Below are positions 50,643-63,110 of a DNA stretch of 64,000 bases, piece by piece. Source of the stretch: Escherichia coli (GTDB lineage Bacteria > Pseudomonadota > Gammaproteobacteria > Enterobacterales > Enterobacteriaceae); NCBI RefSeq assembly GCF_009931435.1, contig NZ_CP043414.1; one strand, written 5' to 3'. The notes beneath the pieces were generated by a model. The model made no database searches. It was not told where the DNA came from and saw only the letters and a list, made by a program, of their open reading frames with translations. Each line of letters begins with the position of its first letter. The first letter of the stretch is position 1. Made by a program: the position numbers and the translations under genes.

Positions 50643-50846
50643 ATGTTTGGTAACTTAGGACAGGCAAAAAAATATCTCGGCCAGGCGGCGAAGATGTTGA
50701 TTGGCATTCCAGACTACGACAACTACGTCGAGCATATGAAGACCAACCATCCCGACAAGCCGTACATGAGCTATGAAGAATTCTTCCGCGAACGCCAGAA
50801 CGCGCGCTACGGCGGCGATGGTAAAGGCGGTATGCGCTGTTGTTAA
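50643..50846 (+). CDS. yjiX: YjiX (DUF466 family small protein)
   Basis: 67 aa [67 protein letters not shown]. Confidence 0.8.
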
Positions 50847-50856
50847 TGGAGAGAGC

Positions 50857-51813
50857 ATGAACCCGATTGCAGTTACCCTACTCACCGGTTTTTTAGGCGC
50901 AGGCAAAACCACCCTGCTGCGCCATATTCTTAATGAACAGCACGGCTACAAGATTGCCGTGATTGAAAACGAATTCGGCGAAGTCTCCGTTGATGATCAA
51001 CTGATTGGCGACCGCGCCACGCAGATCAAAACGCTGACCAACGGCTGCATCTGTTGTTCGCGCTCCAACGAGCTGGAGGACGCGCTACTCGACCTGCTGG
51101 ATAATCTCGACAAGGGCAATATTCAGTTCGATCGTCTGGTCATTGAATGCACCGGCATGGCCGATCCCGGCCCGATTATTCAGACCTTTTTCTCCCATGA
51201 GATTTTATGCCAGCGTTACCTGCTGGACGGCGTGATTGCGCTGGTGGATGCGGTACATGCCGATGAGCAGATGAACCAGTTCACCATCGCCCAGTCACAG
51301 GTTGGCTACGCCGACCGCATTCTGCTGACCAAAACCGACGTCGCAGGCGAAGCAGAAAAACTGCGTGAACGCCTGGCACGCATCAACGCCCGCGCACCGG
51401 TCTACACCGTCACCCACGGCGACATCGATCTGGGCCTGCTGTTCAACACCAACGGTTTTATGCTGGAAGAAAACGTCGTCAGCACCAAACCGCGTTTCCA
51501 CTTTATCGCGGATAAACAAAACGATATTTCGTCGATTGTGGTAGAACTGGATTACCCGGTAGATATCAGCGAAGTTTCCCGCGTGATGGAAAACCTGCTG
51601 CTGGAGTCGGCGGATAAACTGCTGCGTTACAAAGGGATGCTATGGATTGACGGCGAACCAAATCGCCTGCTGTTCCAGGGCGTCCAGCGCCTCTACAGCG
51701 CCGACTGGGACCGCCCGTGGGGCGATGAAAAACCGCATAGCACGATGGTGTTTATCGGGATTCAGCTGCCGGAGGAAGAGATTCGGGCTGCGTTTGCGGG
51801 GTTGAGGAAGTAA
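50857..51813 (+). CDS. yjiA: COG0523/CobW-family metal-binding GTPase YjiA
   Basis: Start placed at MNPIAVTLLTGFLGAGKTTLLRHIL... (318 aa); GCICCS metal-binding motif. Confidence 0.9.
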   Translation: MNPIAVTLLTGFLGAGKTTLLRHILNEQHGYKIAVIENEFGEVSVDDQLIGDRATQIKTLTNGCICCSRSNELEDALLDLLDNLDKGNIQFDRLVIECTGMADPGPIIQTFFSHEILCQRYLLDGVIALVDAVHADEQMNQFTIAQSQVGYADRILLTKTDVAGEAEKLRERLARINARAPVYTVTHGDIDLGLLFNTNGFMLEENVVSTKPRFHFIADKQNDISSIVVELDYPVDISEVSRVMENLLLESADKLLRYKGMLWIDGEPNRLLFQGVQRLYSADWDRPWGDEKPHSTMVFIGIQLPEEEIRAAFAGLRK

Positions 51814-51824
51814 AATTTCACATT

Positions 51825-51867
51825 TTTCTTAAGCCGGAAGATATATATACCCCACCGGCTTAAGAAA
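51825..51867. repeat. Inverted repeat at the convergent yjiA / accessory-operon junction
   Basis: TTTCTTAAGCCGG ... CCGGCTTAAGAAA (about 13-bp arms, 17-nt AT-rich spacer); no flanking U-tract on either strand. Confidence 0.4.
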
Positions 51868-51878
51868 GTGCAATTCTC

Positions 51879-52628
51879 TTATGAAACATCACGAAATACA
51901 CAGGTAAGTTCTTTAGGACTTGCTTTCCATATATGGTCAAAGCCACTCGACAGCATGACTTCTATTTTTCCTTCCGGACTTTCAATTAGTAAATAGCGAT
52001 CATGGCAGTTTGTATATTTGGGATTTGTAGTGATTTGCACACTCCATTCAGGATGGATACAATGAACAAAATTACTATTTATTTTACTTCCGTTTTGGAC
52101 TGCAGCGACACCTACTGCGATTTCTGAAAATTCAATAACAAGCTCTTTTCTAGGTAGTACGGAATGAAATAAGCTGCATGTATTCTCCCAATTCTGTGCA
52201 AAGTAATTATCGCATATAATTACTTTTTTTGCATTGCAACATAGCATTTCCAGATACTTTTTTAAATATATTCTATTATCTGTAGGGCTTAATGTAACGG
52301 TAACTTGATTATTAACCATACCTTTTTTATAATGTACAAAGGGAAGTGATAAATTATCATTCTCAGTAAGGATTATTTTCAACAACGATTTAGATGCTAA
52401 AGTAACAAGATCATCATCACTTTCAGGCTGACTTGCTAACATAGATAAATATTGTCGATATTCTAACTCCGGCATCTTCAATCCTAAATTTCTTGCCTCA
52501 ATCCATTGCCTTTTGTTAGTTAAATAAGGTAGTACTAGTTTTTTATGTAATCTCTTCACCTTATTCTTATCATCCATATTTTCATATGCAACTAATAAAG
52601 ATGTATCAAGAACCATTTGATAAGACAT
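51879..52628 (-). CDS. Hypothetical protein, no recognisable domain; third gene of the accessory operon (gene C)
   Basis: 249-aa ORF; ATG 4 nt after the ATPase stop with a GAGGT Shine-Dalgarno; AT-rich coding sequence. Confidence 0.6.
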   Translation of the reverse strand: MSYQMVLDTSLLVAYENMDDKNKVKRLHKKLVLPYLTNKRQWIEARNLGLKMPELEYRQYLSMLASQPESDDDLVTLASKSLLKIILTENDNLSLPFVHYKKGMVNNQVTVTLSPTDNRIYLKKYLEMLCCNAKKVIICDNYFAQNWENTCSLFHSVLPRKELVIEFSEIAVGVAAVQNGSKINSNFVHCIHPEWSVQITTNPKYTNCHDRYLLIESPEGKIEVMLSSGFDHIWKASPKELTCVFRDVS

Positions 52629-52632
52629 TTCT

Positions 52633-53682
52633 TTACCTCATCTTCATCAAATCATCTAAGGTTGCATCAAAAAAACCTAAAGGGAATCCCGTAACATTCT
52701 CTTGCAGATCGGTAAATTTCCCACCTTCATTAACTCTCATCGAGATAAAATCTTTATCCACATCAGGTTTATAATGTACAGAAATATCCTCAGAAGTTAT
52801 AACATCTTCATAAACCAAATACGCAAGTTTATTGATTAAATGTTCACAATGCGTTTCTACAATAATCTGGATACCCTTACTTGCTACAAATGCTAAAAAA
52901 ATTGCCAAATGAGACTGCGCTTTCGGATGCAATTGAATTTCGGGATTTTCTAGCAAAATAAGATCGCCTTTTTTTGCCATCAAACAAATAATCAAAACCT
53001 TTGCAATATAACTCATCCCAGCCCCAAGATTAAGAGGAGAAACATTTCCTTCAAGCTCTTTTAAGGTAAAAGCGACCTTAATCTGGTCACCAACTTTTTC
53101 AGTAACTAATTCAGACGTCGTTCCTGTAATCAGTTTCAACCAATAAGATAATTGATATGCAAGTGTTGTAGATTCGTGAACTTTCACCAGATATTCAGGT
53201 ACTGGCAAATGTTTCATTTTATCAAATGTTGAAAACAAGAATTCTCCTGCAACACCTACTCGACGTTCTGCGGTGGGCACAAATTCTTGTGCCCCCAAGC
53301 GGTTGGCATTCAGATAGAGCAACTCAGGTTCACTACCAGGCACTCTTGGCTCGTATTGATATCCCAGACGACTATCAATTTCGATATTTTCTGAGTTGAG
53401 CGTTAACGAATGAGAATTTTTTTCTGTATCCTGGACTGTTATAACAATAGATTTTGCGTTATTTTTTTTATTTCTAATAACAGGAAAATCAGCTAGAAAT
53501 CGGATAACTTCTTCCATACTATACTGATTAACAGAAGCGCTATTTTTAATTAGTAACATCAATGCCTGAATAACGCTGGATTTACCAGAAGAGTTAGTTC
53601 CAGTTAAAATGGTCAGTGGTGATAACACCAGACTTGTTGAGCCTAAACTTTTAAATCCTTGAATGTTAATATTTGTAAGCAT
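52633..53682 (-). CDS. ABC-type/AAA_21-like ATPase, second gene of the accessory operon (gene B)
   Basis: 349 aa; N-terminal MLTNINIQGFKSLGS... with Walker A GTNSSGKSS; C-terminal Walker B and H-loop (DLILLENPEIQLHP...IIVETHCEHL); start overlaps the upstream gene by 17 nt. Confidence 0.75.
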   Translation of the reverse strand: MLTNINIQGFKSLGSTSLVLSPLTILTGTNSSGKSSVIQALMLLIKNSASVNQYSMEEVIRFLADFPVIRNKKNNAKSIVITVQDTEKNSHSLTLNSENIEIDSRLGYQYEPRVPGSEPELLYLNANRLGAQEFVPTAERRVGVAGEFLFSTFDKMKHLPVPEYLVKVHESTTLAYQLSYWLKLITGTTSELVTEKVGDQIKVAFTLKELEGNVSPLNLGAGMSYIAKVLIICLMAKKGDLILLENPEIQLHPKAQSHLAIFLAFVASKGIQIIVETHCEHLINKLAYLVYEDVITSEDISVHYKPDVDKDFISMRVNEGGKFTDLQENVTGFPLGFFDATLDDLMKMR

Positions 53683-54796
53683 TTTTAATCCTTTCCATTA
53701 TTTCCTTCGCAAAATCAAAACGCATATTTACATATTGTGTTGTATCAATTGCACCAGAAAAAATACCAATCTCATCAAAATTATACTTGTATTGTTCAAT
53801 AAGCTGTTTTAATTCAATATTTTTTGATAAAAATTCAAAACTTATCTGACTGAATACCATAACTAACACTTCGAATAATCCCATATTCACTGGTCGCCTT
53901 TTAGCACCTGATTTTGTTGAAAATCTAAATGCTTCTGAACCCAACGCTTTATAGACATTAGTCATACCAGTTATACAAGCATCTTCAACTTCTTCCAGTA
54001 ACTCATCATCAGCTTTTGTATTAATGAATTTCATCGCAGATGCTAAAAAAGCATCAATATCAGACCTAAATTCAACACCTGGCATTTGATTTGTTACAAG
54101 CAAATAAAATCCTACGAACCGCAAAACCAGATATCTGTCTCGCATACGCTCAGATTTTACGCCATTACCTGTTGCAAGCCTGAAAGACTCGTGTTCAGCG
54201 AGATCCTTAATTAACTTTGTGGCCTTGCCTTGATAAAGAGCATGCCGCATTTCCTGTTTATTTAGATTAATACCACTTCGATTTACACGCTCAAAAATAT
54301 TAAATTTCACATATTCAGGTGTTGGGGGTTGAATCACATAAGAATGTAACTGGCAATCTTCAAGCTTTGCTTGTAATAATGGAGGAATATCAGAAAATTT
54401 TTTTCCTCTCAAGTCAGGCAACATAGATAAATCAGTTAAAGAAAATTCATTGTTAACATAGCGTTTCAATGCAGATATTCGTTGTTTGCCATCAATGATT
54501 TGCCTGACACCATTTTCATCCTCAAAAAGATAAATTAATGGAATAGGAATCCCCATTAAAATAGATTCAATTAATTCTGACTGGTGTTTTCTATCCCAGA
54601 CAAGTTTACGCTGAAAATCTGGAGCAAGAACCAGTTGCCCACGAGCTTCGCGACGGAGTAATTCGAAAACACTGGATTGCTCTTTTGCAATTCGAACCTC
54701 AGTATCTGTCCCCATTTGATGCGGATGAGATGTTAACTCAAGCTCTTCTTGATCTTCGAGTTCAATGCTGTCGTTTTCTACATCCGCATTACTCAT
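53666..54796 (-). CDS. DUF262 (ParB/sulfiredoxin-like NTPase, GmrS-type) domain protein, first gene of the accessory operon (gene A)
   Basis: 376 aa; acidic N-terminal tail then DUF262 motifs PDFQRKLVWDRKHQSELIESILMGIPIPLIYLF...IIDGKQRISAL and FNIFERVNRSGINLNKQEM; no DUF1524/HNH motif found. Confidence 0.75.
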   Translation of the reverse strand: MSNADVENDSIELEDQEELELTSHPHQMGTDTEVRIAKEQSSVFELLRREARGQLVLAPDFQRKLVWDRKHQSELIESILMGIPIPLIYLFEDENGVRQIIDGKQRISALKRYVNNEFSLTDLSMLPDLRGKKFSDIPPLLQAKLEDCQLHSYVIQPPTPEYVKFNIFERVNRSGINLNKQEMRHALYQGKATKLIKDLAEHESFRLATGNGVKSERMRDRYLVLRFVGFYLLVTNQMPGVEFRSDIDAFLASAMKFINTKADDELLEEVEDACITGMTNVYKALGSEAFRFSTKSGAKRRPVNMGLFEVLVMVFSQISFEFLSKNIELKQLIEQYKYNFDEIGIFSGAIDTTQYVNMRFDFAKEIMERIKNAYKY

Positions 54797-55036
54797 GGTA
54801 AAATTACCTTTAAAAATTTATCGAATTATTTATTCATAAAAATAGGGCGCTGAATCAAAATTTCAGCCCCTTAATCAACATGAATTATACCCTAACTTCC
54901 TTCTTGACTGCGACCTTCACTGCACCATTATGCGAGTTATCTCCAGAACATAATGCTCTCATACCGCCCTAAGTCATAGCCAGGCTATTGATTTTATGTA
55001 CAATCAGAATCGTCCTGATAAAAGCGAGAATACCCC

Positions 55037-57469
55037 ATGGCGGAACTGAACCTAAGTAACCTGACGGAAGCAGACATCATTACCAAATGCGTTATGCCAG
55101 CCATTCTCAATGCAGGCTGGGACAACACAACGCAAATCAGACAGGAGGTCAAACTCCGGGACGGTAAAGTCATCGTACGTGGTAAAGTTGCGGCACGCAG
55201 AACGGTAAAATCTGCTGACATCGTGCTGTATCACAAACCAGGCATTCCCTTAGCCGTGATTGAAGCAAAAGCCAACAAACATGAAATTGGCAAAGGGATG
55301 CAACAGGGCATTGAATATGCGCGCCTGCTGGACGTTCCTTTTGTTTTTGCCACCAACGGGGATGGCTTTATCTTCCGCGATGCCACCGCAGCCGAAGGTG
55401 AATGCCTTGAAAAGCAAATAACGCTGGATGACTTCCCCTCCCCCGCTGAACTCTGGCAAAAATTCTGCCTCTGGAAAGGATACACACAAGCTCAGCTTCC
55501 GGTGATTACTCAGGACTATTACGACGATGGCAGCGGTAAATCGCCACGTTATTACCAGCTTCAGGCAATCAACAAAACCATTGAAGCCGTCTCCAACGGG
55601 CAAAACCGCGTTCTGTTGGTCATGGCGACCGGAACAGGGAAAACCTATACCGCATTCCAGATCATCTGGCGCCTGTGGAAATCAAAAAATAAAAAACGCA
55701 TTCTGTTCCTTGCCGATCGCAACATTCTGGTCGACCAAACCAAAAATAATGATTTCCAGCCATTTGGTACGGCAATGACCAAAGTCAGCGGACGCACCAT
55801 TGATCCCGCTTATGAAATTCACCTCGCGCTCTATCAGGCTATAACTGGCCCGGAGGAAGACCAAAAAGCGTTTAAACAAGTCGCACCAGATTTCTTCGAT
55901 CTGATAGTCATCGACGAATGCCATCGCGGCAGCGCATCCGAAGACAGCGCCTGGCGAGAGATCCTTGATTATTTCAGTTCCGCCACCCAAATTGGCTTAA
56001 CCGCCACGCCAAAAGAGACGCATGAAGTCTCCAGCACGGATTACTTCGGCGATCCGGTTTACGTCTACTCGCTAAAAGAAGGGATCGAAGACGGCTTCCT
56101 CGCCCCTTATAAAGTTGTCCGTGTTGATATTGATGTTGATCTGCAAGGCTGGCGCCCAACCAAAGGGCAAACTGACTTAAACGGCGAAGTGATCGACGAT
56201 CGTATCTATAACCAGAAAGATTTCGATCGCACGATGGTAATCGACGAACGCACAGAACTGGTTGCCAGAACCATTACCGACTACCTCAAGCGCACCAATC
56301 CGATGGATAAAACCATCGTCTTCTGTAACGACATCGATCATGCAGAACGTATGCGCCGCGCCCTGGTTAATCTCAACTCGGAGCAGGTGAAAAAGAACGA
56401 CAAATACGTCATGAAAATCACCGGCGATGATGAAATTGGCAAAGCTCAGTTGGATAACTTCATCAACCCGAAAAAACCGTACCCGGTTATCGCGACCACT
56501 TCAGAGCTGATGACCACCGGTGTGGATGCTAAAACCTGCAAACTGGTAGTACTGGACCAGAACATCCAGTCGATGACCAAATTCAAGCAGATTATCGGTC
56601 GTGGTACACGCATCGACGAACGTTACGGCAAACTCTGGTTTACCATCCTCGACTTTAAAAAAGCCACCGAACTGTTTGCCGATGAGCGTTTCGATGGCAT
56701 TCCCGAAAAAGTCATGGATACCACACCAGAGGATATCACCGATCCAGAATCTGATTTTGAAGAGAAACTCGAAGAAATCAGCGAACATGACGACGAACAG
56801 GTAACGGGCGTTGATGAACCGCCTGCGCCACCATACCAGGTTACCGATACCGATGATGTCGGCCCACTTCCGGAAGAAGACGAGAAGAAAATCCGCAAGT
56901 TTCACGTCAACGGTGTCGCGGTGGGCGTTATTGCGCAGCGTGTTCAGTATTACGATGCCGACGGTAAACTGGTTACCGAATCTTTTAAAGATTACACCCG
57001 CAAAACACTGCTCAAAGAATATGCCTCGCTGGATGACTTTACCCGCAAGTGGCAGGACGCCGATCGCAAAGAAGCGATCATTCACGAGCTGGAGCAACAG
57101 GGGATCATCTGGGAAGTACTGGCAGAAGAAGTCGGTAAAGATCTCGACCCGTTCGACATGCTTTGCCACGTAGTGTATGGTCAGCCGCCGTTAACCCGCA
57201 AAGAGCGCGCCGAGAACGTGCGCAAGCGGAACTACTTCACAAAATACTCTGAAGCAGCGCAAGCCGTGCTCGATAATCTGCTGGATAAATACGCCGATGC
57301 GGGCGTACAGGAGATCGAAAGTATTCAGGTGCTGAAACTTAAACCATTCGACAGCATGGGCACTTTACCGGAGATTATTAAAACCGGATTTGGCGACCGT
57401 AACGGGTATAATCAGGCGCTCAGCGAGCTGGAAAACGAAATCTACCAATTACCGCCCCGCTCTGCTTAA
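55037..57469 (+). CDS. hsdR: Type I restriction enzyme R subunit HsdR (short, Type IB-like form)
   Basis: 810 aa; N-terminal PD-(D/E)xK nuclease region and SF2 helicase motifs [26 protein letters not shown]. Confidence 0.9.
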
Positions 57470-57483
57470 CAACTCTCTTTTGC

Positions 57484-57522
57484 GCCTTCTGCAACCATCA
57501 TGTTGCAGAAGGCCTTGTTTTT
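57484..57522 (+). terminator. Rho-independent terminator between hsdR and hsdM
   Basis: Perfect 12-bp stem GCCTTCTGCAAC / GTTGCAGAAGGC with a 6-nt loop, followed by CTTGTTTTTC. Confidence 0.55.
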
Positions 57523-57535
57523 CATGGAATACAAC

Positions 57536-59005
57536 ATGTCTATCAGCTCAGTAATCAAATCATTACAAGATATTATGCGCAAAGATGCCGGTGTGGATGG
57601 CGATGCGCAGCGTCTCGGTCAGCTCTCCTGGCTGCTGTTTTTGAAAATCTTCGATGCCCAGGAAGAGGCGCTGGAACTGGAGCAGGATAACTATCAATAT
57701 CCGATCCCACAGCGTTATTTGTGGCGCAGTTGGGCCGCCAACGCGCAGGGCATTACCGGTGATTCCCTGCTGGAATTCGTTAATGATGATCTGTTCCCGG
57801 CGTTGAAAAACCTCACTGCGCCTATCGATAAAAACCCACGCGGCTACGTGGTGAAGCAGGCGTTCAGCGATGCCTATAACTATATGAAAAACGGTACGCT
57901 ACTGCGTCAGGTGATCAACAAGCTGAACGAAATTGACTTTACCAGCGCCAGCGAACGCCATCTGTTTGGTGATATTTACGAACAGATCCTTAAAGATCTG
58001 CAATCTGCGGGCAATGCTGGCGAATTCTATACTCCACGCGCCGTCACTCGCTTTATGGTGGATCGCGTTGATCCGAAACTCGGCGAATCCATTATGGACC
58101 CGGCCTGCGGTACGGGCGGTTTTCTTGCCTGCGCATTTGATCATGTAAAGAACAAATACGTGAAGAGCGTCGCCGATCATCAGACTCTGCAACAACAGAT
58201 CCACGGTGTCGAGAAAAAACAGCTTCCGCACCTGCTGGCGACCACCAATATGCTGCTGCACGGCATTGAAGTACCGGTACAAATTCGTCACGACAACACC
58301 CTGAATAAACCGCTTTCCTCCTGGGATGAGCAACTGGATGTGATTGTTACCAACCCGCCATTTGGTGGCACGGAAGAAGACGGTATTGAGAAGAACTTTC
58401 CGGCAGAGATGCAAACCCGCGAAACGGCGGATCTGTTCCTGCAACTGATTGTGGAAGTACTGGCGAAAAACGGTCGCGCGGCGGTGGTATTGCCGGATGG
58501 CACACTATTTGGCGAAGGCGTTAAAACCAAAATCAAAAAACTGCTTACCGAAGAGTGCAACCTGCATACCATCGTGCGTTTACCGAATGGGGTGTTTAAC
58601 CCCTATACCGGCATTAAAACCAACCTGTTGTTCTTTACCAAAGGTCAGCCAACCAAAGAGATTTGGTTCTATGAGCATCCGTATCCGGCGGGCGTGAAAA
58701 ATTACAGTAAAACCAAGCCGATGAAGTTTGAAGAGTTTCAGGCGGAGATCGACTGGTGGGGGAACGAGGCCGATGGTTTTGCCAGCCGCGTCGAGAATGA
58801 GCAGGCGTGGAAAGTCAGCATTGATGACGTGATTGCGCGTAACTTCAATCTGGATATTAAAAACCCACATCAGGCGGAAACCGTTAGCCATGATCCGGAC
58901 GAGCTGTTAGCGCAGTATGCAAAGCAGCAGGCGGAGATCCAGACGCTGCGTAATCAACTGCGCGATATTCTTGGCGCTGCGCTGTCTGGCAAGGAGGTTA
59001 ACTGA
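57536..59005 (+). CDS. hsdM: Type I restriction-modification N6-adenine DNA methyltransferase HsdM
   Basis: SAM motif DPACGTGGFL and catalytic NPPFGG; start placed at MSISSVIKSLQDI... after the hairpin (the track ORF starts at 57500, inside the hairpin). Confidence 0.9.
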   Translation: MSISSVIKSLQDIMRKDAGVDGDAQRLGQLSWLLFLKIFDAQEEALELEQDNYQYPIPQRYLWRSWAANAQGITGDSLLEFVNDDLFPALKNLTAPIDKNPRGYVVKQAFSDAYNYMKNGTLLRQVINKLNEIDFTSASERHLFGDIYEQILKDLQSAGNAGEFYTPRAVTRFMVDRVDPKLGESIMDPACGTGGFLACAFDHVKNKYVKSVADHQTLQQQIHGVEKKQLPHLLATTNMLLHGIEVPVQIRHDNTLNKPLSSWDEQLDVIVTNPPFGGTEEDGIEKNFPAEMQTRETADLFLQLIVEVLAKNGRAAVVLPDGTLFGEGVKTKIKKLLTEECNLHTIVRLPNGVFNPYTGIKTNLLFFTKGQPTKEIWFYEHPYPAGVKNYSKTKPMKFEEFQAEIDWWGNEADGFASRVENEQAWKVSIDDVIARNFNLDIKNPHQAETVSHDPDELLAQYAKQQAEIQTLRNQLRDILGAALSGKEVN

Positions 59006-60753
59006 TGAGTGTGGAAAAGCTGATCGTTGATCATATGGAAACCTGGACCTCGGCGTTGCAAACCCGTTCCACCGCCGGGCGCGGCAGTTCCGGAAAAATT
59101 GATTTATATGGCATTAAGAAATTACGTGAGCTGATTCTGGAACTGGCTGTGCGCGGTAAACTGGTGCCGCAGGATCCGAATGATGAACCGGCGTCGGAGC
59201 TGCTGAAGCGTAATGAAGAACGGAAAAAAGAATTAGCGCGCAATAATGGTATGAAAACCACAGCAAGCACTAATATCCATGGAAATGAATATTATATCGA
59301 TACCCCCGAAAAGTGGTCATGGATAAGACTTGGTAATTTAGCTAAATTCATCGATTACCGAGGGAAAACACCACATAAAAAAGAAAATGGTATAAGGCTT
59401 ATAACAGCAAAAAATATCAGAAAGGGCTGTATTGATCTCAATCCAGAAGAATTCATATCTGAAGAAGATTACATATCATGGATGACAAGAGGCTTTCCTA
59501 AATGTGGTGATATTTTATTCACAACTGAAGCACCACTGGGGAATGCAGCGATTATTGATTTAGACGGAAAGTTCGCTCTTGCTCAACGTTCTATCTGTTT
59601 TCAATGGCATACTCCAGAGATAAGCCCTTTTATGCTTATTCAAATCCTGGCGATCCCCTTCCAGTCACAACTAAGTGACAAATCTACAGGCATGACCGCA
59701 ACAGGAATAAAAGCGTCTAAGTTAAAAGAGATCCCTGTTATTTTACCACCTTACCAAGAACAAATACGTATTGTATCCAAAGTACAGGAGTTCATGTCCC
59801 TATGTGACCAACTGGAACAGCAATCCCTGACCACTCTGGACGCACATCAGCAACTGGTTGAAACCCTGTTGGGAACGCTTACAGACAGCCAAAACGCCGA
59901 GGAACTGGCTGAAAACTGGGCGCGTATTAGCGAGCATTTCGACACCCTATTTACCACCGAAGCCAGCGTGGATGCGTTAAAACAGACCATTCTGCAACTG
60001 GCCGTAATGGGCAAACTTGTGCCGCATGATCCGAATGACGAACCAGCCTCTGAACTGCTCAAACGAATTGCGCAGGAAAAAGCTCAACTGGTGAAAGAAG
60101 GAAAAATAAAAAAACAAAAACCGTTGCCGCCGATTAGCGATGAGGAAAAACCTTTTGAACTGCCGGAAGGGTGGGAATGGATTAGACTAGGAAATATTGG
60201 TGAAGTTAAAGGGGGCGGAACCCCAAGTAAAAACAATCCTGATTTTTGGAAAGGTAATATTCCATGGGTTTCACCAAAGGATATGAAGGTTAATTACATC
60301 TCCAAAAGTCAACTAAATATTTCAAAAGAGGCTGTATTGGAGAGTTCAGTACATCTAATTCCTGAAAATAGTCTTATTTTTGTTGTCCGAGGCATGATTT
60401 TAGCCCATACATTCCCCGTAGCAATAACAAAAAAAGAAGTCACTATTAATCAAGATATGAAAGCCATATCAACTAATCAATTAAATACTGATTTTTTAAT
60501 TTACTTACTTAAAGCAAACGAGACTCGAGTAATATGCTTAGTTGACCGCTCCTCTCATGGCACATGTAAACTTGTTTCAGATAAACTTTTCAATTTGGTT
60601 TTACCGTTGCCTCCATTAGAAGAACAATTTCGTATTACAGAACGAATAAATATGCTATTAGCTTATTGTGATAGATTGAAAAATTATATAAATCTAAAAA
60701 AACAAACCCAACTGCACCTTGCAGATGCACTCACTGACGCGGCGATAAACTAA
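59005..60753 (+). CDS. hsdS: Type I restriction-modification specificity subunit HsdS
   Basis: 582 aa; ATG overlaps the hsdM stop (TGATG); two target-recognition domains, each preceded by a conserved repeat (LAVRGKLVPQDPNDEPASELLKR / LAVMGKLVPHDPNDEPASELLKR). Confidence 0.9.
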   Translation: MSVEKLIVDHMETWTSALQTRSTAGRGSSGKIDLYGIKKLRELILELAVRGKLVPQDPNDEPASELLKRNEERKKELARNNGMKTTASTNIHGNEYYIDTPEKWSWIRLGNLAKFIDYRGKTPHKKENGIRLITAKNIRKGCIDLNPEEFISEEDYISWMTRGFPKCGDILFTTEAPLGNAAIIDLDGKFALAQRSICFQWHTPEISPFMLIQILAIPFQSQLSDKSTGMTATGIKASKLKEIPVILPPYQEQIRIVSKVQEFMSLCDQLEQQSLTTLDAHQQLVETLLGTLTDSQNAEELAENWARISEHFDTLFTTEASVDALKQTILQLAVMGKLVPHDPNDEPASELLKRIAQEKAQLVKEGKIKKQKPLPPISDEEKPFELPEGWEWIRLGNIGEVKGGGTPSKNNPDFWKGNIPWVSPKDMKVNYISKSQLNISKEAVLESSVHLIPENSLIFVVRGMILAHTFPVAITKKEVTINQDMKAISTNQLNTDFLIYLLKANETRVICLVDRSSHGTCKLVSDKLFNLVLPLPPLEEQFRITERINMLLAYCDRLKNYINLKKQTQLHLADALTDAAIN

Positions 60754-60775
60754 TTTTCTCGCCCTCATAAAACCA

Positions 60776-60801
60776 ATAAAGCGGCTAAATAGCCGCTTTA
60801 T
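60776..60801. terminator. Hairpin downstream of hsdS
   Basis: ATAAAGCGGCT-AAAT-AGCCGCTTTAT palindrome 23 nt after the hsdS stop; no strong U-tract. Confidence 0.35.
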
Positions 60802-60880
60802 TCACATCACCAAAAATTATATTTTACGCTAATTTTCATCTTATTTTCATTAATTTTTAGCTGGACTTTCCCCATATTTA

Positions 60881-60896
60881 CTGATGATATGTCCAG
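60881..60896. promoter_or_regulatory. LexA (SOS) box in the symE promoter
   Basis: CTGATGATATGTCCAG, a CTG-N10-CAG box (with flanks TACTG...CAGGT) about 80 bp upstream of the symE ATG. Confidence 0.5.
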
Positions 60897-60914
60897 GTAT
60901 TTAGCGCGGTGCGA

Positions 60915-61000
60915 ATGTGCGCCAACACACCCGCACCGCTCATCACAATCCCTATTTCACGAGAATAGTAATCATGACTGACACGCATTCTATTGCACAA
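60915..61000 (-). ncRNA. symR: Expected position of the SymR antisense sRNA (boundaries not determinable from sequence)
   Basis: Placed only by analogy: in K-12 SymR is encoded antisense to the symE 5' UTR and start codon; no independent sequence evidence. Confidence 0.25.
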
Positions 61001-61315
61001 CCGTTCGAAGCAGAAGTCTCCCCGGCAAATAACCGTCAATTAACCGTGAGTTATGCGAGCCGCTACCCGGATTACAGCCGTATTCCCGCCATCACTCTGA
61101 AAGGTCAGTGGCTGGAAACCGCCGGTTTTACCACCGGCACGGCGGTAGATGTCAAAGTGATGGAAGGCTGTATTGTCCTCACCGCCCAACCACCCGCCGC
61201 CGAGGAGAGCGAACTGATGCAGTCACTGCGCCAGGTGTGCAAACTGTCAGCGCGTAAACAGAAGCAGGTGCAGGAGTTTATTGGGGTGATTGCCGGTAAA
61301 CAGAAAGTCGCCTGA
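60974..61315 (+). CDS. symE: SOS-induced toxin-like protein SymE (AbrB/SpoVT fold)
   Basis: 113 aa [48 protein letters not shown]...; track ORF starts at an upstream Met (60917). Confidence 0.85.
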
Positions 61316-61361: not shown

Positions 61362-63110
61362 TTATACCAACGCGCTCTCCATCTGTTTTTCAAATGCCTG
61401 ACGGATTAATCCCATAATGTAAGGAAGTTGTGCGAGGTCGCTGAAACCAATTTCTACATCGCCATTGCCCCAGCGCCCAACATTTGTCACATCTTTGGCA
61501 ATACCTTTCGGATCGACCAGTTCATGAAACTGCATATTAAGCGACAATCGCAGTCGGCTTTTTTGCGGCACAACATCAACAAAATTCGTTTCCGCTTTAA
61601 ACGCAATATAGAGCTTCAATACTTCCTGCGTGATCCCTGCGTCCAGGCGCAAAACTTCATCGCTAAGATGATCGAATAACACCCGGCTATGCGAACCATC
61701 AGCAAGAAAAGGATAATCACTCAGGCTGTAACTGGTTTTGTTTTCCGGCTGCCCCCGATAAACAGCTAAAACCTCTTCAGGAAGAGAAGGCGCTTGCCAG
61801 ACCTGAACCGCGAGATCGGCCAGACGATCGGCTCGGGCGTGAATGGCAGCTTCATCCCATTTTTCGCACTGTCCAAGACCGATATTCAAATAAAGCGGGC
61901 TATGCTTAAAGCCGTCTTCAATATCGCGTTTTTCCGCGAAAGGTCTGTCACTGTAGCGGGAGTTATAGCGCGTTAAAGTGAGATTCCCCAACGTATGCAA
62001 CAATTCTTTATGAATACGCTGCCAGTCGCTTCCCAGCTCTTCGCGCCATTTAGCCGACAAATTTTCGTTCTGCGGCATAATGTGCTCAATCGTAAACTCT
62101 TCCACGCGCTCTCTGCGTTTATTGTTTTCCAGTCGTCGTAACCAGTAACTGCGACTGCGGAAGTTATAGAGATCGCGAACTTTTAATTCCCGTTTAAATT
62201 CATCATCGTTGGGGAAACGACGATATGAAGGTAGATTCAGAAAATGTACCTGAATACTTTCCAGATAATTTTCTTTATTAATAACTTTATAAAAAGTGGC
62301 AAACGTCTTGTTAAGAGAATTTGTTGGAATCGCACATACTGCACGGCGGAAAACATAAGATTCAATTAAACGAATTATGCTCAGGAAATCTTCACGAGAC
62401 AAAACGCCATTTTTATAGTCATGATAAAGCGCCAGTAAGAAAGGATACGCCACATCGACTTTTAACTCGCGCAAATCCTGAAAAGCCGTAGCAAGCGATT
62501 TGTCACTTTCTTTTCCCAATGCCATTGCACAGTAATACTCCGCGTAGATGTGAATATCTTCAACCAGCCGATCTACGCCTTTTTCAGCAACACTCTGGCT
62601 ACGGGCATGGAGTTTAAAAGCCTCATAGACTTCATCTGTCCGAGGGATCTCCCCCGTTTTTACCGTCAGATAATGACGCATAAAACTGTCAAAATATTCG
62701 CTGTAACCTTGCTGACCAAAGGCGACTTCCATGGGTCGCCAGTGATCTTCATACAACCGGGTTTGATGCTCTGGTTCGAGACCCATCAGAATAAAATTGC
62801 GCACCAGATCGGCCTGACTTAACGCCTTACCGGTGGAGTTCATACTTTCAAAAATCAGTTGCGGATTATCCTGACCACGATTAAGCGCCACATCGACAAT
62901 TAATAACTTTGCTAACCCACGACATAAGGGGATCAAGTCATCACCGAGTTTGGCAATTTGTTCATCAAAGAAAGTAAAGTTTTCCATTATTCGATGGGAA
63001 TAGTTTTCTGGCATTGGTCTTTGTTTTATTAACGCCAGCAAACTGTCTTTATCAGTCTCGGTAAGCAGTAATTTAAATCCTTTCTCGCCGGACTCATAAG
63101 GATTGAGCAA
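61362..63110 (-). CDS. GmrSD-family (DUF262 C-terminal part + DUF1524 His-Me finger) protein lacking the N-terminal DGQQR core; possibly the yjiT-equivalent locus
   Basis: 582-aa ORF with a TTG start right after an in-frame stop; DUF262 distal motif IFESMNSTGKALSQADLVRNFILMG; DUF1524 motif EHIMPQNENLSAKW...LHTLGNLTLTRYNSRYSD; only 64 bp separate it from yjiS. Confidence 0.7.
   Translation of the reverse strand: MLNPYESGEKGFKLLLTETDKDSLLALIKQRPMPENYSHRIMENFTFFDEQIAKLGDDLIPLCRGLAKLLIVDVALNRGQDNPQLIFESMNSTGKALSQADLVRNFILMGLEPEHQTRLYEDHWRPMEVAFGQQGYSEYFDSFMRHYLTVKTGEIPRTDEVYEAFKLHARSQSVAEKGVDRLVEDIHIYAEYYCAMALGKESDKSLATAFQDLRELKVDVAYPFLLALYHDYKNGVLSREDFLSIIRLIESYVFRRAVCAIPTNSLNKTFATFYKVINKENYLESIQVHFLNLPSYRRFPNDDEFKRELKVRDLYNFRSRSYWLRRLENNKRRERVEEFTIEHIMPQNENLSAKWREELGSDWQRIHKELLHTLGNLTLTRYNSRYSDRPFAEKRDIEDGFKHSPLYLNIGLGQCEKWDEAAIHARADRLADLAVQVWQAPSLPEEVLAVYRGQPENKTSYSLSDYPFLADGSHSRVLFDHLSDEVLRLDAGITQEVLKLYIAFKAETNFVDVVPQKSRLRLSLNMQFHELVDPKGIAKDVTNVGRWGNGDVEIGFSDLAQLPYIMGLIRQAFEKQMESALV

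Follow-up and report, generated by a model that had tools for sequence, protein, structure and literature searches.

A Menshen NsnC protein with a predicted phospholipase D-like effector domain in the yjiA/hsdR slot of Escherichia coli

The open reading frame at positions 51879-52628 of the analysed DNA, a 64,000-nt stretch of Escherichia coli contig NZ_CP043414.1 (the window), almost certainly belongs to a Type I Menshen (NsnA-NsnB-NsnC) anti-phage system, whose third subunit, NsnC, it encodes. The operon lies in an insert between yjiA and hsdR. In our preferred reading, to which we assign a probability of roughly 0.72, NsnC joins a PIN-like domain without an active site (inPIN) to a phospholipase D (PLD)-like domain, which is the effector of the system and hydrolyses phosphodiester bonds without metal, most likely as a nuclease.

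The assignment to Menshen is defined by full-length profile matches. All three operon proteins match the PADLOC Menshen models end to end (E-values in Table 1). Specifically, residues 1-248 of NsnC align with positions 1-241 of the 242 positions of model PDLC03880, which also recognises the distant relatives P0061, P0076 and P0120. A Foldseek search of AFDB50 retrieves UniProt A0A7W4PU41, an identical 249-aa protein named "PIN domain-containing protein", together with relatives named "PLD phosphodiesterase domain-containing protein" or "restriction endonuclease". General sequence resources are silent. Pfam-A gives nothing meaningful for NsnC or any of 48 aligned homologues, NCBIfam gives nothing for NsnC, and the sole match in a profile search of PDB sequences (THO complex subunit 7, E = 0.2) is a chance one; the relationship of NsnC to the PLD superfamily is visible at the fold level only. 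The silence of Pfam-A and NCBIfam explains why the first-pass annotation, made from the letters alone, found no family signature and called the protein an orphan. The first half of that description stands for these two databases. The second does not, given the PADLOC match (2.2e-71), 62 homologous clusters, 235 representatives of the C-terminal domain and the UniProt entry.

The partner subunits carry the corresponding hallmarks. The NsnB translation contains a Walker A motif (GTNSSGKS), a signature-like motif with GxG (LGAGMSY) and a Walker B motif (LILLEN) that has EN instead of DE, and the same peculiarities have been described for Menshen NsnB (PMC12065111). The NsnA translation carries the DUF262 motifs DFQR and IDGKQR, and orthologous nsnA genes in related contigs carry PF03235. 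Because NsnA lacks the extra N-terminal sensor domain, the system belongs to Type I Menshen.

Menshen was first reported by Millman et al. in 2022, as cited in PMC12065111, and was dissected computationally by Li, Tan, Basu, Corbett and Zhang (Nucleic Acids Res 2025, PMC12065111). The literature already covers the system, the subunit, the domain combination and the predicted catalytic motif as well, and UniProt already lists the exact protein. The proposal that this gene is the most likely effector of its operon agrees with the published prediction for NsnC (PMC12065111). The further proposal of a new effector family fails, since NsnC has been described as part of Menshen and an identical protein is on record.

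Table 1. Positions of the nsnABC operon, the parts of NsnC and neighbouring features in the window
Feature	Positions	Strand	Description
yjiA	50773-51813	plus	flank of the operon
inverted repeat	51828-51864		perfect 10-bp arms, 17-nt loop
nsnC	51879-52628	minus	ATG-initiated ORF, 249 aa and stop; Menshen effector subunit (PADLOC NsnC, PDLC03880, 2.2e-71)
NsnC C-terminal domain	51882-52313	minus	residues ~106-249; PLD-superfamily, MIT_C-like (PB-PLD1); predicted phosphodiesterase/nuclease effector
H209-D210-R211-Y212, HDR(Y) motif	51993-52004	minus	codons CAT GAT CGC TAT; 123/123
D140	52209-52211	minus	acidic residue right after strand 135-139; 122/123
NsnC N-terminal domain	52314-52628	minus	residues 1 to ~105-113; PIN-like without conserved acidic tetrad (inPIN); predicted NsnB-docking module
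nsnB	52633-53682	minus	349 aa; ABC-type ATPase with DUF3696-like tail; predicted transducer (PADLOC NsnB, 1.5e-78, full length)
GAGG ribosome-binding site	52636-52639	minus	8 nt before the nsnC ATG; overlaps the nsnB end; direct reading
nsnA	53666-54796	minus	376 aa; ParB/DUF262 (GmrSD_N); predicted DNA sensor (PADLOC NsnA, 2e-110, residues 8-371)
terminator-like hairpin	54849-54867	minus	followed by a T-rich tail
hsdR	55037-57469	plus	EcoAI/FtnUII-family Type I R-M
hsdM	57500-59005	plus	EcoAI/FtnUII-family Type I R-M
hsdS	59005-60753	plus	EcoAI/FtnUII-family Type I R-M
symE	60917-61315	plus	3' of hsdS
582-aa ORF	61362-63110	minus	TTG start; matches GmrSD-type Type IV restriction enzyme

The three genes are co-oriented, with a 17-nt overlap between nsnA and nsnB and a 4-nt gap between nsnB and nsnC. 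nsnC is thus the third of three genes that all match Menshen models, in line with its earlier placement as the last gene of a defence-type operon. Over the nsnC interval the plus strand is riddled with stops. The 249-aa start is the correct one. It is preceded by a ribosome-binding site, it is the start of the UniProt entry, and it agrees with the lengths of homologues found in the homologous-cluster search (247-250 aa). An NCBI gene model for the identical protein in E. coli (P0001) has 226 aa, which implies initiation at an internal GTG (V24). This shorter model loses the conserved first strand and helix of NsnC, and in the homologue alignment V6, L11 and Y15, all upstream of the GTG, never vary, and L7 and L12 hardly do.

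The 65-bp gap between the convergent yjiA and nsnC genes contains a perfect 10-bp inverted repeat (CTTAAGCCGG ... CCGGCTTAAG) around a 17-nt loop. The repeat is not a textbook intrinsic terminator because neither strand has a T-run, and the terminator scan did not pick it up. The divergent intergenic region between nsnA and hsdR contains a terminator-like hairpin with a T-rich tail ~50 nt upstream of the nsnA start; the scan that found it returned two terminator-like sites against 1.9 expected, which is chance level. No convincing minus-strand sigma-70 promoter candidate was picked up for the nsnABC operon.

Low GC marks the operon as a horizontally acquired insert. Its flanks are yjiA and an EcoAI/FtnUII-type hsdR, and GC content is 32-39% over positions 52000-55000, compared with about 49-58% in the flanks. 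The yjiA/hsdR interval is a well-known defence slot of E. coli, the "immigration control" slot. In strains with the same hsdR type (L010) the slot is occupied instead by a 550-aa DUF262 gene, so the slot swaps between DUF262-based defence genes. At megablast level (query, window positions 51700-55000) the operon is absent from all 5,426 complete E. coli genomes searched.

On the far side of the insert, positions 55037-61315 (plus strand) hold a complete EcoAI/FtnUII-family Type I restriction-modification (R-M) operon, hsdR-hsdM-hsdS, followed by symE. Beyond symE lies the 582-aa ORF, which carries GmrSD_C and, at its C-terminus, DUF5655. Its alignments begin only at position 104 of the PADLOC "Orf5" model and at position 102 of Pfam GmrSD_N, and roughly the first 100 residues of the DUF262 domain therefore seem to be absent. 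This ORF may be a 5'-truncated remnant, or its start may be mis-called.

A word-indexed search found 62 homologous clusters of NsnC at 90% identity, from Salmonella, Klebsiella, Serratia, Yersinia, Dickeya, Citrobacter, Proteus, Shewanella, Moritella, Photobacterium and metagenomes. Every related contig of sufficient length, including contigs of Moritella, of Citrobacter type and from metagenomes, keeps the order NsnA (375-376 aa), NsnB (348-350 aa) and NsnC (247-260 aa). On two short contigs the only upstream gene is cut by the contig end and scores as NsnB (7.6e-64 and 7.9e-76). In the Citrobacter-type contigs (L003, L004) the operon occupies the same yjiA/hsdR slot, directly beside hsdR, and in Moritella (L001, L002) hsdS and hsdR of a Type I system flank it on either side. 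This recurrent adjacency of Menshen and Type I R-M may point to a functional link or simply to a common insertion hotspot. Plasmids also carry relatives of NsnC, both large ones of Klebsiella pneumoniae (51% identity) and many of Campylobacter (~26-28% identity), in both cases adjoining AAA/DUF3696 ATPase genes (among H16-H25). A search of 50,697 phage records found no phage-borne copy of NsnC.

The AlphaFold2 model of NsnC (pLDDT 94.3, pTM 0.89) contains two domains. It is globular, and the maximum 19-residue Kyte-Doolittle mean of the protein is 1.13, consistent with the first-pass description of a soluble protein with no transmembrane segment. A structure search with the AlphaFold model, a remote-homology check of the kind suggested there, found a PIN-like fold in the N-terminal domain and a PLD-superfamily fold in the C-terminal domain.

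The N-terminal domain, which comprises ~105-113 residues, had been overlooked as a separate, catalytically dead PIN-like unit. Specifically, in 48 aligned sequences the residue at D8 is acidic in 24, that at E16 in 39 and that at position 90 in 41 (N90 in the present protein). No acidic residue of the domain is invariant, indicating that the PIN active site is gone. An active, VapC-like PIN RNase in this domain was rejected, as the four metal-binding acidic residues are not conserved.

The nearest fold to the C-terminal domain is the MIT_C domain of MITD1 (2ymb, score 10.8). It is followed by SauUSI nuclease (7clg, 9.2), phospholipase D (7e0m, 8.5), NucT (6ehi, 8.5), Zucchini (4gel, 8.5), Tdp1 (1q32, 8.2), NgoAVII (4rct, 7.9), BfiI (2c1l, 7.1) and Nuc (1bys, 6.6). 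A published NsnC class combines an inPIN N-terminal domain with a PB-PLD1 C-terminal domain, for which matches to MIT_C (11.4), NucT (8.9) and Tdp1 (8.7) were reported (PMC12065111). The present protein fits this description, nearly down to the individual scores, with a PIN-like fold that lacks the D-E-D-D residues and a C-terminal domain whose nearest folds include MIT_C, NucT and Tdp1. The hallmarks of PB-PLD1 are an acidic residue (D/E) after β2 and an HDR motif before β5 (PMC12065111). In the AlphaFold2 model, in which β1 is strand 108-113, D140 follows strand 135-139 and H209-D210-R211 leads into strand 211-217. NsnC is thus of the inPIN + PB-PLD1 type.

A profile of the C-terminal domain was searched against 1.84 billion cluster representatives (50%-identity clusters). 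It matched 235 representatives at E <= 1e-3, of which 150 had E <= 1e-10. Nearly all are proteins of 230-265 aa with the domain at the C-terminus, indicating that the domain is essentially confined to NsnC-type proteins. Conservation was counted over 123 sequences, namely the query and 122 full-length representatives that are mutually <= ~50% identical. In addition to the HDRY motif and D140 (Table 1), G229 (122/123), S228 (119/123), R119 (115/123), E223 (105/123), D or E at position 216 (101/123) and K239 (95/123) are conserved. The conservation of HDRY, D140, G229, S228 and R119 points to a functional active site and speaks against decay of the domain. Among 149 representatives, 148 were detected by the query C-terminal domain and 16 by the N-terminal domain. 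By this measure, the N-terminal domain diverges much faster than the C-terminal domain, in agreement with the "polymorphic inPIN" picture of PMC12065111.

The same counts bear on the residues to which the first-pass annotation had drawn attention. The peptides quoted there (CCNAKKVIICDNYF, IHPEW and NCHDRY) are all present in the 249-aa translation, and the protein does have 7 Cys in 249 residues. The cysteines, however, are not a family trait, as C139 occurs in 19 and C243 in 28 of the 123 sequences and C208 is variable. Similarly, the IHPEW...NCHD pattern holds up only in part: H209 and D210 of NCHDRY are invariant (123/123), whereas C208 and H192 of IHPEW are not conserved. A Cys/His metal site was rejected on this ground.

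The conserved motif of NsnC, H209-D-R211-(x)4-[DE]216-(x)11-S228-G229, departs from the canonical PLD motif HxK(x)4D(x)6G[ST]xN, the lysine being replaced by R211. Pfam PLD/PLDc models match neither the query nor any of the 48 aligned sequences. From its position in the motif, H209 is probably equivalent to the catalytic histidine of Nuc and NucT. We also modelled two copies of the C-terminal domain joined by a GS linker (pTM 0.74). Two-lobed PLDs (2ze4, 1q32, 8v08 and 7e0m) match only one lobe of this tandem, with 108-146 residues aligned and no gain in Z over the monomer. The tandem, a weak test because of its artificial linker, thus superposes no better than the monomer and lends no support to a canonical composite PLD active site.

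Enzymes of the PLD superfamily such as Nuc, BfiI and Tdp1 are metal-independent and work through a phospho-histidine intermediate. Because the superfamily works without metal, a metal-dependent nuclease site, as first suggested, is not the best reading of NsnC. Other Menshen systems have known RNase or nuclease toxin domains at the C-terminal position of NsnC, and AlphaFold3 predicts NsnB4-NsnC2 complexes (PMC12065111). The invariance of HDRY and D140, together with the toxin and nuclease folds at the equivalent Menshen position, makes a nuclease the most likely reading. Its chemistry and its route of activation are predictions, drawn from PMC12065111 and from established knowledge of PLD-family nucleases. 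NsnA, the ParB/DUF262 protein, would sense phage DNA. A tetramer of the NsnB ABC-ATPase would hold NsnC through the dead PIN domain and couple sensing to the release or activation of NsnC. The activated PLD-like domain would then hydrolyse phosphodiester bonds without metal through a phospho-histidine on H209, and cutting of phage and/or host nucleic acid would stop the infection.

The replacement of lysine by arginine, the silence of the PLDc Pfam models, the membrane-binding nature of MITD1 and the tandem model led us to keep two alternatives. In the first, which we regard as unlikely, the PLD-like domain is non-catalytic and NsnC is a regulator or adaptor, for example a binder of nucleic acid or nucleotides, with the toxicity residing elsewhere, for example in NsnA. 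The loss of the HKD lysine and the lack of PLD Pfam matches are compatible with this, as is the failure of the tandem model, a weak test owing to its artificial linker, to form a canonical PLD pseudo-dimer. MIT_C is likewise not known to be catalytic, and DUF262 proteins form part of GmrSD-type nucleases. However, NsnA has no nuclease domain of the GmrSD_C/HNH type, and its orthologues record GmrSD_N only. Moreover, HDRY is invariant and D140, S228 and G229 are nearly so over 123 diverged sequences, and the C-terminal domain is held while the N-terminal domain drifts freely.

In the second alternative, which we hold to be distinctly unlikely, NsnC is still the Menshen effector but acts on membrane phospholipids or binds membranes, so that death or arrest follows from membrane damage. 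MITD1, whose MIT_C domain is the nearest structural neighbour, is a eukaryotic ESCRT-III cofactor that binds membranes and is not a proven enzyme. In contrast, the defence-related bacterial neighbours SauUSI, NucT, NgoAVII, BfiI and Nuc are nucleases, and NsnC lacks any membrane segment, whether hydrophobic or amphipathic. RNase or nuclease domains mostly fill the corresponding position of other NsnC proteins (PMC12065111). Finally, a new effector outside any family, with a metal-dependent nuclease site built on Cys and His (IHPEW...N...NCHD), is very improbable, because the silence of Pfam and NCBIfam and the 7 Cys and 7 His of NsnC are outweighed by the full-length NsnC match, the identical UniProt entry, the PLD-like fold and the lack of conservation of C139, C208, C243 and H192 across the family.

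Beyond the nuclease reading preferred here, there is an outside chance, taking its two parts together, of more novelty. The MIT_C-like HDR branch of this fold may have enzymatic activity whose chemistry or substrate is new to phage defence, for example as an Arg-for-Lys PLD variant that works as a monomer and targets a nucleotide, a lipid or a special nucleic-acid structure. A separate possibility is functional coupling between Menshen and Type I R-M.

The locus is a clean enterobacterial example of Menshen with a PB-PLD1 effector and does not represent a new kind of system. To our knowledge, PB-PLD1 and MIT_C-type domains are not proven enzymes. If NsnC cleaves nucleic acid, the effector step of the PB-PLD1 Menshen subtype would be settled. 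The result would also bear on whether MITD1 and the C-terminal domain of BrxL are enzymes, as speculated in PMC12065111. For annotation, the "hypothetical protein" at this locus becomes NsnC, its 226-aa gene model needs lengthening to 249 aa, and the yjiA/hsdR slot can be described as carrying interchangeable DUF262-based defence genes.

Compared with the published inPIN + PB-PLD1 NsnC (PMC12065111), the present protein shows no difference in kind; it is an Enterobacterales member beside an EcoAI-type Type I R-M system. The Menshen system of Solibacillus silvestris StLB046, the one named as experimentally validated in the literature consulted, protects against phages T2, T4, T6 and Fado (PMC12065111). 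Experimental evidence of phage protection and of complex formation comes from Menshen operons other than the present one. The Solibacillus system shares with the present one the NsnA/NsnB/NsnC organisation and, in NsnB, the Walker B EN and the GxG signature. Its NsnC differs, as inPIN11 is joined there to a BECR-fold RNase domain (PB-BECR1, H-R-H triad), whereas the present NsnC carries a PLD-fold domain.

Human MITD1 MIT_C (PDB 2YMB and 4A5Z) has the nearest fold to the C-terminal domain, but identity is 13% and there is no sequence-level match; in addition, the N-terminal domain of MITD1 is MIT, while that of NsnC is PIN-like. The single-lobe PLD nucleases, namely Nuc, NucT, Zucchini and the nuclease domains of BfiI, NgoAVII and SauUSI, have HxK(x)4D(x)6G[ST]xN where NsnC has H-D-R...[DE]...S-G. 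NsnC also differs from them in having no PLDc Pfam match, and canonical dimerisation is not supported by the tandem model, which is a weak test.

Further parallels are defence systems that pair an ABC-ATPase with an effector, such as PARIS (AriA/AriB), Septu (PtuA/PtuB) and Gabija (GajA). The likeness lies in the ATPase, as NsnB also scores against the PADLOC models of AriA, GajA, Old and PtuA, and in the use of an ATPase scaffold that restrains a nuclease, an arrangement that has been proposed for Menshen (PMC12065111). Menshen differs from these systems in its third, ParB/DUF262 component and in the attachment of the effector through a dead-PIN domain, and the present Menshen effector has a PLD fold in place of the Toprim or HNH of PARIS-, Septu- and Gabija-type systems.
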